Shown piece by piece: positions 6,924-12,940 of a stretch of 26,462 nt of DNA (position 1 is the first letter of the stretch; each line of letters opens with the position of its first letter). Made by a program: the position numbers and the translations under genes. Below the pieces are notes generated by a model. That model did no database searches. It saw nothing but the letters and a program-made list of their open reading frames with translations, and was not told where the DNA came from. The DNA is from an uncultured Nitrosopumilaceae archaeon. GTDB taxonomy: Archaea; Thermoproteota; Nitrososphaeria; Nitrososphaerales; Nitrosopumilaceae. The stretch is from positions 1 through 26,462 of the forward strand of contig CAZDTF010000001.1 in the NCBI GenBank assembly GCA_964508325.1, in the 5' to 3' direction.

Positions 6924-6941
6924 ATTTCCAAATATGGGAAT
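6924..6941. promoter_or_regulatory. Palindromic operator candidate ATTTCCA-AATA-TGGGAAT
   Basis: Overlaps the DMT start codon; TTATTAA lies at 6906-6912. One of five copies in the window. Confidence 0.6.
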
Positions 6942-7917
6942 CACTTCAGATATTGGGAGAATCAAATTCACATCCCCTACAACTTTAGGATATCTAGTTG
7001 TAATTATTGCTGCTACCCTAGAAGCTCTTCGGCAGATTCTATCAAAAGCATTGTTAGTACCAAGTGATCAGGTAACTGCAGAGTTAAATCCAGTTACTGT
7101 CTCTTTTTTCATTTTTATTATTAACGGATTATTTTTTTCACCACTTACCAGAAATAGTGGCTCAATTAGGAAAATCAAAAGAAAGGATTTATTTTTCTTA
7201 ATGTTAATAGGAATTGCGGAAAGTTCAGCGTTAATTACCTACTTTCTTGGATTACGTGACTCCACTGCACTTAATGCATCAGTCCTTAACAACGGAGAAA
7301 TAATGTTTTCAATTTTGTTAGCTGTTATAATTTTCCGCGAAAAGTTTCAAAAAATGGAACGAGTTCCTTTTGCAATGATAATAATCGGAATGGTAGTTTT
7401 ACCGATTGGTTATGACTTTTATGCCAACGGAATAACTATGACGAAGCTGGTTTTTGGCGATATTTTGCTTCTCTTGGCAGGACTGTTTTGGGCCCTTGAT
7501 ATCAACTTGTCACATCATATCAGTAGCAGATTAGGTTCACAACGAATAACCCAAATAGCTTCTTTTTTAGCAGGATTGTTTGCTTTGTGTTTGATTTTAG
7601 GTTTTCAAATTCCATTTAAAATTGATATAACACACATACCGTCTATTGCAATTGTTGGTATTGTTAGTATAGGAATGTCTACGGCTCTTTTCATTACAGG
7701 GTTAAAATTAATAGGAGCAGTACGAACAATCCTGATCTATTCCATAAATTCAGCTTTTGGAGTAATTTTTTCTGGTATATTTTTGCATGAAAATATAACC
7801 ATTGTTAGTATCCTTTCTGTTAGTTTGGCTTTCCTGGGAATTTATCTACTTAGAAATAGATTAGGCAGTGGTGGCCAAAAATTGACGGTAGGGGACAAAG
7901 AAGCAAAGCATGATTAG
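6934..7917 (+). CDS. DMT/EamA-family transporter
   Basis: About 10 TM helices in two EamA repeats; LAVIIFREK and FSGIFLHENIT end motifs. Confidence 0.9.
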   Translation: MGITSDIGRIKFTSPTTLGYLVVIIAATLEALRQILSKALLVPSDQVTAELNPVTVSFFIFIINGLFFSPLTRNSGSIRKIKRKDLFFLMLIGIAESSALITYFLGLRDSTALNASVLNNGEIMFSILLAVIIFREKFQKMERVPFAMIIIGMVVLPIGYDFYANGITMTKLVFGDILLLLAGLFWALDINLSHHISSRLGSQRITQIASFLAGLFALCLILGFQIPFKIDITHIPSIAIVGIVSIGMSTALFITGLKLIGAVRTILIYSINSAFGVIFSGIFLHENITIVSILSVSLAFLGIYLLRNRLGSGGQKLTVGDKEAKHD

Positions 7918-8419
7918 TTTTAAGAGATTATGCGAAAGTTGCCAGCATCAAGGGTGCTGCACAAATTCCTCTGTCCCATTAGTATTCCCAAGTGATTTAA
8001 ACGCATTAAAATCCATTGGAAAGTCTGGAGAGAAATACTTACAACTAGTTACAATAAAAGATAAAAAAGTATTTGCCCTTAAAAAGAAAAATAATTCAAA
8101 TGTTTGTATTTTCTGGGACGAAAATAAAAAAATGTGCTCAATTTATGAAAATAGACCATTTGATTGTAGAGCATATCCTTTTGACATTTGTCTAATTGAT
8201 GGAAAATACCATTGGATAGTGTATTCATGCAATCCAGATAGTGATTGGCACTGGAGTGAAAACTATTTACAGGCGTTAGAAAAAGACATGGAATTAAACG
8301 AAATTTTTAGCAATATTGAAACTTTTGCTAATAATACAGAATTAATTTTACCACGCGAATCAGAAAAAACTCCATACACAATATTACGTGAAGTAAAATA
8401 TAAAAAACCTGATGAATGA
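7910..8419 (+). CDS. YkgJ-family cysteine-cluster (Zn or Fe-S chelating) protein
   Basis: CESCQHQGCC...CIFWD...CSIYENRPFDCRAYPF signature; 8-bp overlap with the DMT gene. Confidence 0.9.
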   Translation: MISFKRLCESCQHQGCCTNSSVPLVFPSDLNALKSIGKSGEKYLQLVTIKDKKVFALKKKNNSNVCIFWDENKKMCSIYENRPFDCRAYPFDICLIDGKYHWIVYSCNPDSDWHWSENYLQALEKDMELNEIFSNIETFANNTELILPRESEKTPYTILREVKYKKPDE

Positions 8420-8477: not shown

Positions 8478-8975
8478 TCAGAGTACTTTGGATGGAACAT
8501 AGGCTCCTTTTATTTTTTGTAACCTTTCCAATCTTTTCATAACGAAAGCTGTAGTTTCACGAACTTCAGGGTTTGGGTCCTCTAGGCTTTTGGATATCAA
8601 GTCTTTAGAATCAAATGCGCGCATCAACCCCAAAGATTCTATTGCTTCATGTTTTGCAATCACACTTTTATCATTTAAGGCAGTTTCAACCAAATCTGGG
8701 ATTTTCTTTCTCATGTTTCTAGCAGCAATTTGGTAACATGCTTCGTGTTTTACAACCCCATTGTTATCGTTCTTTAATACCCATGCCATAAGATCTGCAA
8801 CTTCATCAAATAATGGAGTATCGGGATTCATTTCTGCTATTTCCCCTGCTAGCCATACTGCATCCCAACGTAAGGATTCATCAGGTTCATTTTTTATTAT
8901 TGATATGCATTTATCTAGCCGTTCTCTAATTGGAAGATTTCTTAGTTTACCCTCATCAAGTATGATATTGCTCAT
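8478..8975 (-). CDS. HEAT-repeat protein with two HE motifs (half deoxyhypusine-hydroxylase-like)
   Basis: VVKHEACY, IAKHEAIESLG and DPNPEVRETT...KRLE. The ATG at 8975 is preferred over the TTG at 8981. Confidence 0.85.
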   Translation of the reverse strand: MSNIILDEGKLRNLPIRERLDKCISIIKNEPDESLRWDAVWLAGEIAEMNPDTPLFDEVADLMAWVLKNDNNGVVKHEACYQIAARNMRKKIPDLVETALNDKSVIAKHEAIESLGLMRAFDSKDLISKSLEDPNPEVRETTAFVMKRLERLQKIKGAYVPSKVL

Positions 8976-8992
8976 TTCCAAATATGGAAATG
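8973..8992. promoter_or_regulatory. Palindromic operator candidate CATTTCCA-AATA-TGGAAATG
   Basis: Perfect 8-bp arms. It overlaps the HEAT gene start and sits at the divergent promoter shared with the 9072 regulator. Confidence 0.65.
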
Positions 8993-9071
8993 CTATATCC
9001 GTAAATAAGGATTGTTATTTCATCATGAGACACACTACTCGATTTAACCATCATTATCCTATACTTGTATA

Positions 9072-9689
9072 ATGTCAGGATTAGACACACTTATTGCAAA
9101 ATCGTTAGATTCAACAATTAAGGAAAATTTAGGTAAAAAAACCTTAGAAAAAGTTGAACAGAGACTCTTTGAGCGATATGGTATAAATCTTACACAGTCT
9201 ATTGAAGATTTTACTAAACTTGATAGTGTACTAAAAGAGTTTTTTGGTGAAGGTGCAGAAGGACTAGAAAAACAATTCTTGGAAAATATAGTCAGAATAG
9301 AACAAGAATCAAAAACTCAAAGCCCAAATTGGGTTGCAATAGAAGATGCTTCTCTTGCCAAATTAATTTTAGAATCATTTGGAGATGAAGACAAGAAAAA
9401 CATTCTAAATTCTGTCTTAGATGAACCCAGGATCATTTCAGACATTCTAGAAATCTCAAAAATACCACAGACCTCTGGTTATAGAAAAGTCAATTCTTTA
9501 ATTGATAATGGTCTATTAATAGTTCAAGGTCACATTACTACACATGACGGAAAAAGGGTGAGTAAGTATAAATCAATATTTGAGAATGTAACAATCAATA
9601 TTGAAAAAAATAAGGTGGTCGTCAAAGTTCTACTTGCTAAAGAGTCAATAGAAAAAAGCTCTGTAATTCAAGTAGTCCAATGTAGATGA
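9072..9689 (+). CDS. Transcriptional regulator: DUF3227-like helical N-terminal domain plus winged HTH
   Basis: The N-terminus has LFERYGI...LKEFFGEGAEGLE. The C-terminus has DKKNILNSV...ISDILEISKIPQTSGYRKVNSLIDNGLL...GKRVSKY (ArsR-like wHTH with wing). Confidence 0.8.
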   Translation: MSGLDTLIAKSLDSTIKENLGKKTLEKVEQRLFERYGINLTQSIEDFTKLDSVLKEFFGEGAEGLEKQFLENIVRIEQESKTQSPNWVAIEDASLAKLILESFGDEDKKNILNSVLDEPRIISDILEISKIPQTSGYRKVNSLIDNGLLIVQGHITTHDGKRVSKYKSIFENVTINIEKNKVVVKVLLAKESIEKSSVIQVVQCR

Positions 9690-9695
9690 TCACAA

Positions 9696-10496
9696 GTGCT
9701 GCGTTGGAAAAGGCATTCTGATAAGCCAGACATAGTACCTGAAAAGCTAGAAAGCCCAATTGATCCAAAAATACTATTACTTATTTTTGGGATAGTAGTA
9801 TCATTTCAGATTTATTTGTATCAGGCTTTTCCAAAACCAGATGATGCTTCTCATCTGATTGATGTCATTTCTGTCATCAACCCACTGATCTCTTCAATTG
9901 CCGCATTTATTGTAGTTAAGAAATATTGGGGATCGCGTGTTTTTGGAAAAGCGTATCTTGCTTTAGCGATAGGGTTTACCATGAATTTTCTTGGAGAGAC
10001 TGTTTATGGGATCTACGACACTTTGGGTTATGATACAAGTTTTGGCCCCATGGATATACTCTTCTATGCATTTTACCCGTTGATAATGGCCCATTTAATA
10101 TTAAATATCAGGTTTTTCAAGCCAAAAGTTGGAATTCTAACCAAAGCATGGGTGATAGCCATCCCAGTTGCTATCACATTAGTTTATTCAATCTTGTCAT
10201 TTCAAAAACAGGGTGAGGCTAACTTTGCTTTCTATACTGGCATGATTTATGTAATCTTAGGTTCAGCCATTTTATCAGGCACCATGTTAGGAGCAAGGGT
10301 ATTCAGGCAAGGTGTACTAGGAATGTCTTGGTTTGTTCTATTGATTGGTGTCATACTCTTAACTGTAGGTGACGTATGGTATTCATACCTGGATACGTTT
10401 GATCAATACACGTTGACTCACCCAGTGAATTTATTTTGGTATGGTGGTTACATGTTAGTTACTTATGCATTATACAAACATCAAAAAATAATTTAA
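9696..10496 (+). CDS. Multi-pass membrane protein resembling a stand-alone sensor domain (paralogue A)
   Basis: About 8 TM helices; GKAYLALAIG...GETVY...DILFYAFYP and GDVWYSY...HPVNLFWYGGY. There is no cytoplasmic kinase domain. Confidence 0.75.
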   Translation: MLRWKRHSDKPDIVPEKLESPIDPKILLLIFGIVVSFQIYLYQAFPKPDDASHLIDVISVINPLISSIAAFIVVKKYWGSRVFGKAYLALAIGFTMNFLGETVYGIYDTLGYDTSFGPMDILFYAFYPLIMAHLILNIRFFKPKVGILTKAWVIAIPVAITLVYSILSFQKQGEANFAFYTGMIYVILGSAILSGTMLGARVFRQGVLGMSWFVLLIGVILLTVGDVWYSYLDTFDQYTLTHPVNLFWYGGYMLVTYALYKHQKII

Positions 10497-10930: not shown

Positions 10931-11830
10931 ATGCAGACATCTAAAGAGGATCTAATAGATCAGTCTGTTACTCATATGACAAGCGACATGGCTAATTTTT
11001 CTGTAATAGGATCCACTCTAGAATCCAAATCATATGATTATGAAATGTTGCTAGAAAAATTGAAAAATGAATTATCTAAATTTGGATTAACTTCAAACCA
11101 ATCAAAAGTCTTCTTGTTTTTAGAAAAATATGGTCCAAGTACAGCAACCCAAGTAAGCAAGACTTTAAAGGTCCCAAGAACAGAGACGTATCATCTTCTT
11201 ACCCACCTTCAAAACAAGGGAATAGTATCTGCTACATTTCAACATCCGATCAAATTTTCAGCATTGTCACTTGACAAAGCAATAGGAGTTCTGATAAACA
11301 CTGAAAAAGAAAGAGTAAAAACTTTAGAAACTCAGGAAAAAGGTTTGGTTGATCTTTGGAACACTATTCCAAATTTTAAGATCGACCAAAATGATTCTAA
11401 AGAAGGTAAATTTCAGATGCTCCAAGGAATAAATCAAATGACTGGAAAAATAAATGAAATGATTACCAAAACAAAAAATGAACTCCTTATCTTAGGATCA
11501 GAAAAAGACTATATGAAGTTTTATCATTCAGGTTTTTTGGAACTGATCACAGACTCTAAAGTGGAAGCAAAATTGATCACATCATCATCTAAAAAAACAA
11601 CCTACATCTACGATCAAAAATTAATATCCAAAGTAAAGAAGATGCCAAGCAAAATTAAAGAAAATCTGTGCTTTATAATAAAAGACGACAACGAATTGCT
11701 TTTATTCATGAAAAATGTGAGTGAATCTCCACAAAATGTTGTAGCAATGTGGACTGATTCGACTTCAATGATTTACACGATGAAATTGCTTTTTGGCTAT
11801 ATCTGGTCAAACTCTAGACATATACAATAA
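10931..11830 (+). CDS. TrmB-family transcriptional regulator
   Basis: LSKFGLTSNQSKVFLFL...ATQVSKTLKVPRTETYHLLTHLQNKGIV (TrmB HTH), then a coiled linker and a C-terminal effector domain. Confidence 0.92.
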   Translation: MQTSKEDLIDQSVTHMTSDMANFSVIGSTLESKSYDYEMLLEKLKNELSKFGLTSNQSKVFLFLEKYGPSTATQVSKTLKVPRTETYHLLTHLQNKGIVSATFQHPIKFSALSLDKAIGVLINTEKERVKTLETQEKGLVDLWNTIPNFKIDQNDSKEGKFQMLQGINQMTGKINEMITKTKNELLILGSEKDYMKFYHSGFLELITDSKVEAKLITSSSKKTTYIYDQKLISKVKKMPSKIKENLCFIIKDDNELLLFMKNVSESPQNVVAMWTDSTSMIYTMKLLFGYIWSNSRHIQ

Positions 11831-11849
11831 TGAAGGAATAAAAACCAAC

Positions 11850-12137
11850 ATGGATTTTGAAAAAAATCAATTAAGAAAAGCATTAGTTAGTCTTGCTGTT
11901 GAAAGAGTGTTAATTGATATTGGAGATCCAGTTTACGAGAAAGTGATAAAGCAATTATCCAAAGACTATGATTGCTATTTGCCTGATTGTTATGAACATC
12001 CAGAATACCTAAACAAAGTTTTAAAGAAACTCTTTGGGAACTCTTTTGTCACTATTGTAGAAGCGATAAAAAAAGAACTGGAGGTTCAAATGATAGAAAA
12101 ACCCATCGAAGTCTTTATCAGTACAATAAGTGAGTAA
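11850..12137 (+). CDS. Small Nitrosopumilus output-domain (NitrOD)-like protein
   Basis: KALVSLAVERVLIDIG...YDCYLPDCYEHPEYLNKVLKKLFG is recalled as the thaumarchaeal output domain found with response regulators. ATG at 11850. Confidence 0.7.
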   Translation: MDFEKNQLRKALVSLAVERVLIDIGDPVYEKVIKQLSKDYDCYLPDCYEHPEYLNKVLKKLFGNSFVTIVEAIKKELEVQMIEKPIEVFISTISE

Positions 12138-12139
12138 AT

Positions 12140-12940
12140 TTGCAAAATAATTTTGAGAGATTACAAGAACAGAAGCTACTATTCACGTGCCTTATTATCA
12201 CAGGTCTTGGAATACTAATAGCTACATTTCTTGGAAAAGAAATGGTCAAAACAGTGACTGATCTAACATACGTTCCAGTAGCTGGAATGCTGGTTGTTTT
12301 ATCGATAATTATTTCAGCAAGATTTCGAAAAACTGGAAATCATGGCAAAGCTTGGCTATTATTCTCAGGCCTTGCAATTTCATGGTTTATTGCAGAAACA
12401 ACTTGGATCATTTATGAACTTGGATATCATCTTAATCCATTTCCATCGCCAGCAGACGCATTTTATCTTATAGGATATCCGTTTTTATTTTTGTTTACGA
12501 TACATTACCTCAAACCATTTAAGAAATTAATTTCAAAAAAATTAATAATTTCTGCTTCAGTGATTACGATATCAGTTCTAATTCCAAGTTTGTATATGAC
12601 AATTGAGAACCATTCAAATGAAAGTGGTTTTGGAGTTATTTTAGGCGCAATTTATCCAATTGAAGATTCCATAGTTCTTGTTCCAGCAATAATTGGTATT
12701 GTTTTATTTTTTAGAGGTGAAGTAAACTTTTTGTGGACACTATTGTTGATTGGAATTTTGTTTGAAGTAATAGCAGATACGGGATTTCAATATGTCACAC
12801 TAAATAATTCATATTATACTGGTCATCCCGTAGACATTTTATTCATATGGTCATACATCATGTTTTCATTTGGTGTTTATAGTCATATTAAGATATTCAA
12901 AAAGGAAAACAGAATAAAAGAATCCAATAAATTTGTATGA
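12140..12940 (+). CDS. Multi-pass membrane protein resembling a stand-alone sensor domain (paralogue B)
   Basis: GKAWLLF...AETTWIIYEL...PFPSPADAFYLIGYP and ADTGFQY...GHPVDILFIWSY; same pattern as 9696..10496. Confidence 0.78.
   Translation: MQNNFERLQEQKLLFTCLIITGLGILIATFLGKEMVKTVTDLTYVPVAGMLVVLSIIISARFRKTGNHGKAWLLFSGLAISWFIAETTWIIYELGYHLNPFPSPADAFYLIGYPFLFLFTIHYLKPFKKLISKKLIISASVITISVLIPSLYMTIENHSNESGFGVILGAIYPIEDSIVLVPAIIGIVLFFRGEVNFLWTLLLIGILFEVIADTGFQYVTLNNSYYTGHPVDILFIWSYIMFSFGVYSHIKIFKKENRIKESNKFV

Follow-up and report, generated by a model that had tools for sequence, protein, structure and literature searches.

A half-size homologue of deoxyhypusine hydroxylase as an optional gene of Nitrosopumilaceae, predicted to pair with itself and accompanied by a sensor-like gene neighbourhood

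A 165-residue protein encoded by an uncultured Nitrosopumilaceae archaeon is a single-lobe homologue of eukaryotic deoxyhypusine hydroxylase (DOHH) that keeps the equivalents of that enzyme's iron ligands, and its gene is optional within one archaeal family, where it is co-inherited with a sensor-like/regulator/transporter module. The reading that we favour, and to which we give about even chances, is that this protein (type I) is a homodimeric DOHH-like diiron oxygenase, an accessory paralog of the Nitrosopumilaceae acting on a substrate different from aIF5A. The missing hypusine hydroxylase of archaea is probably not type I; should an archaeal HEAT protein fill that role at all, a second and more widely distributed paralog (type II) would be the better fit. 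The type I gene lies in a 26,462-nucleotide stretch of DNA (the window; contig CAZDTF010000001.1 of assembly GCA_964508325.1) from a metagenome-assembled genome (MAG) that is 70% complete in 293 contigs.

A one-lobe relative of eukaryotic DOHH

The type I coding sequence occupies positions 8478..8975 on the minus strand (stop codon 8478-8480) and yields 165 amino acids from the ATG at 8975, the start used in most orthologues; an alternative TTG start at 8981 (8478..8981, minus strand) would add two residues. The open reading frame is real and carries the motifs ascribed to it in a first-pass annotation made from the sequence alone: KHEACY, KHEAIESLG and DPNPEVRETT..KRLERLQ can all be read directly in the translation, where, in the ATG numbering used here, they appear as K76-H77-E78-A-C-Y, K108-H109-E110-A-I-E113-S-L-G and DPNPEVRETT...KRLERLQ (the earlier numbering, H79/E80 and H111/E112/E115, is correct when counted from the TTG). 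The first His-Glu motif (His77-Glu78, codons at 8742..8747, minus strand) has its counterpart in human DOHH at His56-Glu57, and the second (His109-Glu110-Ala-Ile-Glu113, codons at 8637..8651, minus strand) at His89-Glu90 and Glu93. Four HEAT-like repeats had been read from the sequence, and the AlphaFold2 monomer model (pLDDT 93.7, from a 26-row alignment) agrees, with eight helices arranged as four hairpins; HEAT_2 (PF13646) is the sole Pfam family recognised (47.3 bits, above the gathering threshold of 27.7). An antisense open reading frame inside the gene (8761..9072, plus strand) was set aside, as the homologues found match the minus-strand frame.

In a phmmer search of all PDB chains, the best match of type I was human DOHH (4d4z/4d50, E 6.3e-9), its residues 63-157 matching the N lobe and another stretch matching the C lobe less strongly. 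The alignment pairs KHEACY with KHELAY (H56/E57) and KHEAIESLG with RHEAGEALG (H89/E90), which confirms the motifs of the human N half that the first-pass annotation had quoted. A profile built from 26 family members retrieved DOHH across both lobes at E 1.1e-23, followed by synthetic alphaRep proteins (7.7e-14 for an alphaRep fusion, and 1.3e-9), and an HMM-HMM comparison with nine eukaryotic DOHHs (hhalign) gave a probability of 98.8% and an E value of 5.6e-17 across repeats 1-4. At the profile level, the match between the two sequence families is far beyond chance, and the proposal that the protein is a single-lobe DOHH homologue is borne out by the PDB ranking, the profile and the hhalign comparison alike. 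The motif-for-motif correspondence claimed earlier, with near-identical spacing, likewise holds at the level of the ligands, the His-to-His distance being 32 residues in type I and 33 in eukaryotic DOHH. A fold search with the monomer also placed 4d4z first, but designed alphaReps were almost as close and not clearly separated, so that DOHH and alphaRep cannot be told apart on monomer fold by itself. PBS-lyase-type HEAT proteins (CpcE/CpcF, NblB) and alphaReps share with type I the short HEAT_2 repeat and are similar to it in monomer shape, but they are without His-Glu pairs at the ligand positions and form continuous solenoids without the two-lobe DOHH packing. A PBS-lyase/NblB identity was rejected on the NCBIfam scores (NblB, 18.7 bits against a cut-off of 300; CpeY, 12.5 against 600).

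The N and C lobes of eukaryotic DOHH have diverged and form a pseudo-dimer, in which H56, H89, E90, H207, H240 and E241 anchor the diiron centre, and E57, E90, E208 and E241, together with two glycines (G65/G214), bind the substrate (2021 review, PMC9117371). Type I has in common with this enzyme (human 4D4Z/4D50; yeast Lia1; EC 1.14.99.29) the HEAT-hairpin fold, two His-Glu motifs per lobe set 32-33 residues apart with the ligands aligned, a HEAxExLG second motif and a last repeat of the form DPxxxVxET...RL. The two differ in several respects: their identity is only ~20-26%; position His+7 of the first motif is Ala in type I and Gly in eukaryotic DOHH; type I is an optional gene in a sensor/regulator/transporter neighbourhood; and, whereas each eukaryotic chain holds eight repeats as a two-lobe dyad, the 165 residues of type I make four hairpins and hence one lobe, so that a homodimer would be required.

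Conservation within the family is concentrated on the metal-type residues. A word-index search returned 939 homologues of type I, which were mostly from Nitrosopumilaceae and, where they had a name, were listed as 'HEAT repeat protein' of Nitrosopumilaceae, Nitrososphaera sp. and Thaumarchaeota. Among 28 close members, 45 alignment columns are invariant (including N72-G-V-V-K-H77-E78, H109, E110 and E113), and across 26 rows reaching down to ~31% identity only R19, R36, H77, H109, E110 and E113 remain so. The equivalents of the DOHH iron anchors in this lobe (H77, H109 and E110, for H56, H89 and E90) are therefore strictly conserved over the 26 rows, and E78, the counterpart of Glu57, is kept in 25 of them and replaced by Asp in the other. 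Loss of the His-Glu motifs among orthologues had been named in advance as an outcome that would speak against a DOHH-like enzyme; down to ~31% identity, both motifs are kept. The Gly position at His+7 is more variable: it is Ala84 in the window gene and Ala, Val or Ser in the type I crown group, while basal type I members keep Gly. Conversely, the Glu at His+4 of the second motif is present in type I (HEAIESLG) and in eukaryotes (HEAAEALG), but absent from type II (HEAAIALG).

Predicted self-pairing, a natural fusion and tandem halves

The first-pass annotation had suggested that the single half acts as a homodimer, and structure prediction, a natural fusion and tandem half-genes all point to such pairing. 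When two copies of type I were modelled with two Fe(II), the predicted complex reached ipSAE values of 0.87, 0.87 and 0.86, against 0.00 for the best control; among proteins of solved structure, 20 of 30 homo-pairs and 1 of 23 single chains attain the mark used for dimers, a calibration that is only approximate here, given the custom alignment and the ligands. DOHH is itself a solved look-alike, and the dimer pass, like the fold predictions, may partly reflect memory of it. The three runs had at least 79% of their contacts in common, with a partner pLDDT of at least 87, and predicted a symmetric interface formed by residues 6, 8, 32-38, 72-75, 104-106, H109, E113, 119 and 137-155. In the model, residues 105/106 of both copies touch each other and the partner's H109, which would put the iron sites at the two-fold axis. 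Residues invariant in the family are enriched at this interface (18 of 29 positions, compared with 45 of 165 overall; hypergeometric p 1.4e-5).

A two-lobe arrangement of type I sequences also occurs in a single chain. The protein P0121, a 316-aa single open reading frame on a 1.2-kb metagenome contig, joins two type-I halves head to tail, and both His-Glu motifs are present in each half. Its AlphaFold2 model (pLDDT 91.3; the alignment rows all fell on the N half, and the model was confident nonetheless) superposes on human DOHH with a TM score of 0.71 by target and an rmsd of 4.9 Å over 314 columns, compared with a TM score of at most 0.45 and an rmsd above 12 Å for every other HEAT/ARM chain. 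Superposition on DOHH alone indicates that the fusion would adopt DOHH two-lobe packing and not a continuous solenoid, and the predicted packing of joined type I copies matches that of the eukaryotic enzyme. In another lineage, on two further metagenome contigs, two diverged type-I-like half genes stand in tandem, 3 bp apart. Type I thus probably pairs with itself, as a homodimer for which DOHH-like two-lobe geometry is predicted.

Two paralog families and the gene neighbourhood of type I

To place type I among related archaeal proteins, we surveyed 401 genomes sampled across the phylum with the type I profile. Full-length type I matches (E 1e-55 to 1e-78) were found in 27 of the 57 Nitrosopumilaceae (genome G000 included) and in 0 of the 344 other genomes of the sample, and even within genera the gene is patchy (4/7, 12/23 and 5/7). 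Weaker matches (E 1e-14 to 1e-21; open frames of ~165-180 aa) belong to type II, which is present in 54 of 56 Nitrosopumilaceae, in the order's two sister families (a level that includes the Nitrososphaeraceae) and in another two families. One of the latter is in the Caldarchaeales, judging from its members' names, archaeon HR01 and Caldarchaeum. All 27 genomes with type I also carry type II. The two families are well separated by the type I profile, which gives at least 164 bits for type I members and at most 76 bits for type II and everything else.

Type II is, like type I, a half-size DOHH homologue, with one lobe and two His-Glu motifs 32 residues apart; it is ~160 aa long and always ends in ...TGG. 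Beyond this ending and its wider distribution, it differs from type I in a higher score against human DOHH (79 bits, E 2.6e-21, compared with 39.5 bits) and in having the eukaryotic first motif, HEAAxxLGQ. The sequence case for type II as the nearer relative of DOHH is nevertheless not one-sided, since it is type I that keeps the Glu at His+4 of the second motif. Type II also adjoins two DHS homologues in archaeon HR01, the only such case among the 10 type II loci examined (locus L017), and this adjacency is a lineage-specific clue and no rule. For type II proteins, IMG uses the name 'deoxyhypusine monooxygenase', a label from automatic annotation only, and NCBI the name 'HEAT repeat domain-containing protein'.

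In a tree of single lobes, type I forms one clade (SH-aLRT 99) on a long stem (0.9), whereas type II (98), eukaryotic lobes (99) and Heimdallarchaeota-type lobes fall together, with a support of only 81% for that grouping. The Heimdallarchaeota proteins concerned (244-263 aa; for example, MCY3413108.1) are HEAT proteins of the type I superfamily with identical motif spacing, but they hold four His-Glu motifs, and thus both lobes, in a single chain, as eukaryotic DOHH does, and their lobes group with type II and eukaryotes apart from type I (support 81).

The window's own assembly contains a type II gene as well (contig C151; motifs RHEAAFSLGQM and RHEAAIALG), but this copy looks damaged. It begins at the end of its contig, has two in-frame stops (L005, 35-37 and 47-49) and has lost its stop codon by a TAG-to-TTG change. 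Contigs ~96% identical to it from three rock-metagenome runs have G, T and A at the damaged places, and in them the gene is intact and continues upstream. The damage may be an error of the MAG or strain-specific decay, and type I could be the only intact half-DOHH copy in the window genome.

Gene neighbourhoods were compared over 16 type I loci from 15 genomes (50-85% identity to the window gene). Divergent from type I, with ~95 bp between the two genes, lies a 205-aa putative winged-helix (wHTH) regulator (9072..9689, plus strand), with a weak match to a TrmB helix-turn-helix over residues 119-152 (E 0.005) and look-alikes named as transcriptional regulators or HTH families, a lead only. It is found within ~4 kb of type I in 15 of the 16 loci and belongs to a multi-copy family that, in the genome sample, is confined to the Nitrosopumilaceae and whose paralogs often stand beside paralogs of a membrane protein. 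That protein, TM266 (9696..10496, plus strand), begins 7 bp after the 205-aa gene; it is a 266-aa multi-pass (7-TM) protein to which no Pfam family matched, and over ~240 aa it is 25-29% identical to the N-terminal membrane part of ~600-aa HisKA+HATPase_c sensor kinases, so that by sequence it resembles a stand-alone sensor-kinase input domain. TM266 lies next to or within ~4 kb of type I in all 16 loci, and matches of at least 154 bits occur in 27 of 27 type-I genomes and in two genomes without type I, a co-occurrence to be read as an association among genomes that are related and not independent. Convergent with type I is an EamA/DMT-family transporter (6934..7917, plus strand; Pfam EamA 1.7e-30), within ~4 kb in 15 of the 16 loci. 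By contrast, a putative Zn/Fe-chelating protein of the CxxCxxCC (YkgJ) type (7910..8419, plus strand; Pfam PF03692, 5.2e-9) accompanies type I at just 3 of the 16 loci.

The genes are shuffled in order and orientation from locus to locus, and both TM266 and the 205-aa protein are still near type I on a metagenome contig (L041) where type I has fallen to 56% identity. One contig with a 56%-identical homologue also carries PvlArgDC, 2.7 kb away; several genes lie between, and no linkage was taken from it. In the window, no translation or polyamine genes were found, the neighbours being the EamA transporter, the YkgJ-type protein, a flavin reductase, an Hjc-like protein and TrmB. Together, the partner genes look like a sensing module, as far as their sequence relationships indicate.

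Candidate activities of type I

On the reading that we favour, one type I chain would form one four-HEAT lobe with one His/His/Glu iron site (H77, H109 and E110), and E78 would correspond to the Glu that in DOHH helps to bind the amine of the substrate. Two chains would pair head-to-head, with the two-fold axis passing the H109/E113 region, and would in this way rebuild the two-lobe, two-iron centre of DOHH, which could then activate O2 and hydroxylate an amine-bearing substrate. We infer the iron binding, the O2 chemistry and the class of substrate. That substrate is probably not deoxyhypusine-aIF5A and would more likely be linked to the co-inherited module of wHTH regulator, 7-TM protein and DMT transporter, but synteny with a regulator, a sensor-like protein and a transporter does not identify it. 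As a tentative elaboration, possible rather than probable, type I may hydroxylate a free small molecule that bears an amine, such as a polyamine, or else a target associated with the membrane, with the 7-TM protein and the wHTH regulator governing its expression or activity and the DMT transporter handling the product.

The first-pass annotation had proposed deoxyhypusine-aIF5A, or else another substrate; on the former proposal, the type I homodimer would be the archaeal enzyme that converts deoxyhypusine-aIF5A to hypusine-aIF5A. Its premise that no archaeal DOHH is established stands: papers from 2012 to 2021 describe archaea with DHS and without DOHH, some of them containing hypusine (PMC5178350, PMC6105217, PMC8153317 and PMC3306375), and searches of newer literature change nothing. 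Our literature search found no paper describing an archaeal DOHH or the type I and type II paralogs, and none mentioning hypusine together with Thaumarchaeota. This gap leaves room for such an enzyme, and several observations would suit type I in the role, as DOHH is its nearest solved relative, the per-lobe iron ligands and the Glu57 equivalent are all kept, the window genome has aIF5A and two DHS homologues, and the type II copy of the MAG looks damaged. Ammonia-oxidising archaea are aerobes, as hosts of an O2-dependent enzyme need to be. The distribution, the neighbours and the existence of a closer paralog nevertheless speak against the proposal, which we regard as unlikely. The co-occurrence with aIF5A and DHS that it would lead one to look for does not appear, type I being restricted to about half of one family while DHS was matched in 4 of 4 archaeal control genomes; type I does not follow the pathway. 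Every genome with type I already has type II; the conserved neighbours of type I are unrelated to translation or polyamines, and the DHS genes of archaeon HR01 adjoin type II, not type I; type I sits on a long divergent branch; and Ala84 occupies the position of a glycine (G65/G214) counted as substrate-binding (PMC9117371). Hypusine is reported in Sulfolobus acidocaldarius (as cited in PMC5178350), and our control genome of that species, in which DHS is present, yields not a single HEAT_2 hit, so neither paralog explains the hypusine of Sulfolobales or is a general archaeal solution.

Other readings keep the fold and change the function. A non-catalytic sensing or adaptor subunit, in which a HEAT dimer binds iron (or O2/NO via iron) and reports to the 7-TM protein and a wHTH regulator controlling the DMT transporter, would account for the homology between the constant neighbour and the membrane input domain of sensor histidine kinases, for the recurrence of wHTH and 7-TM gene pairs as paralogous modules in these genomes and for the divergent arrangement of the regulator and type I genes; HEAT repeats, moreover, commonly serve as protein-binding scaffolds. 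We consider it doubtful, as the full catalytic-type ligand set and the substrate-binding Glu are kept as in an enzyme, the regulator assignment is weak, and to our knowledge no DOHH relative acts as a sensor. An ordinary HEAT scaffold with structural His-Glu pairs and no bound metal is highly improbable: Pfam sees HEAT_2 only and the monomer fold is shared with designed alphaReps, but generic HEAT_2/alphaRep repeats are without His-Glu at these positions, the family varies around the four metal-type residues but not at them, and the fusion is predicted to pack into two lobes in the manner specific to DOHH. It also seems very unlikely that type I and type II together make an asymmetric two-lobe enzyme, as eukaryotic DOHH does with its differing N and C lobes. 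Diverged halves do occur in tandem elsewhere, eukaryotic DOHH is itself a pseudo-dimer of this kind, and no type-I genome in the sample is without type II, but in the fusion and in the tandem pairs the partner of type I is type I, not type II, the two genes are unlinked, the type I homodimer is confidently predicted, and about half of the family, like other orders, has type II only, which must work there without type I.

The homodimeric DOHH-like oxygenase acting on another substrate thus remains our preferred reading for type I. Half-size archaeal homologues of DOHH are concrete, clonable candidates for the question of the missing archaeal enzyme, and, with single genes, tandem genes and fusions all represented, they exemplify a possible origin of the two-lobe enzyme of eukaryotes. 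In ammonia-oxidising archaea, type II rather than the window gene would be the first to consider for aIF5A. Type I suggests that the diiron HEAT scaffold of the DOHH type has another, as yet unexplored use, tied to a lineage-specific module; if this is true, the DOHH lineage would have in type I its first member to act on a substrate other than IF5A.

Conserved terminus and own-genome copy of type II

In every type II half-DOHH protein examined, the conserved end ...F-[AT]-[KR]-[LK]-T-G-G stands directly before the stop codon, making type II a HEAT protein with a C-terminal Gly-Gly. Copies with this TGG end were located at L013:3021-3506 (minus strand), at loci L014-L022 and, in the Nitrosopumilaceae MAG itself, at L005:50-367 (contig C151 of GCA_964508325.1). 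In this own-genome copy, the gene (region L005:1-460) is truncated by the contig start, is interrupted by two in-frame stops (TAA at 35-37 and TAG at 47-49) and has TTG in place of its stop codon at about 365-367. Contigs of approximately 96% identity from three metagenome runs of the probable source study carry G, T and A at the altered sites, which leaves the gene intact; the lesions reflect either an assembly error or recent decay.

Genes neighbouring type II, and the putative wHTH and 7-TM modules

A Rad50/SMC-like ATPase gene is convergent with type II in the Nitrosopumilaceae, the two almost touching (ATPase genes at L005:223-1656 and L014:3318-5420, both on the minus strand). Two diverged DHS (PF01916) homologues are present in the MAG (L001:1417-2376 and L002:1399-2511), and in archaeon HR01 both kinds are adjacent to each other (L017:949-1860 and L017:1903-2898), beside the type II half-DOHH gene.

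Pairs of genes for a putative wHTH protein (205 aa) and a 7-TM protein (about 266 aa), one of which neighbours type I, are repeated paralogous modules in the Nitrosopumilaceae (modules and related genes at window positions 9072-10496 and 10931-12940, and at L039:665-2464). The 205-aa protein has seven matches within its own genome, a 7-TM paralogue (window positions 12140-12940) follows a TrmB regulator, and the same 7-TM domain forms the N-terminal part of sensor kinases of approximately 600 aa (HisKA+HATPase_c).

Two-lobe, fused and tandem relatives

Four database proteins (P0158, P0154, P0180 and P0219; 244-263 aa) each comprise two HEAT lobes, carry four His-Glu motifs and are possibly full-length archaeal DOHH relatives; one of them is MCY3413108.1, from a Heimdallarchaeota MAG, annotated solely as a HEAT repeat protein. 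In another database protein, P0160 (363 aa), two type-II-like modules are fused; each contains two RHE motifs and closes with ...RLIGG. Ahead of them lies a hydrophobic, signal-peptide-like N terminus, an odd feature for an enzyme whose expected substrate is a translation factor of the cytosol. Diverged type-I-like half genes were also found as a tandem pair separated by 3 bp (L042:3-1090 and one ENA contig), with a convergent Methyltransf_21 gene after the pair; as an intermediate, the tandem arrangement stands between the single gene and the fusion.
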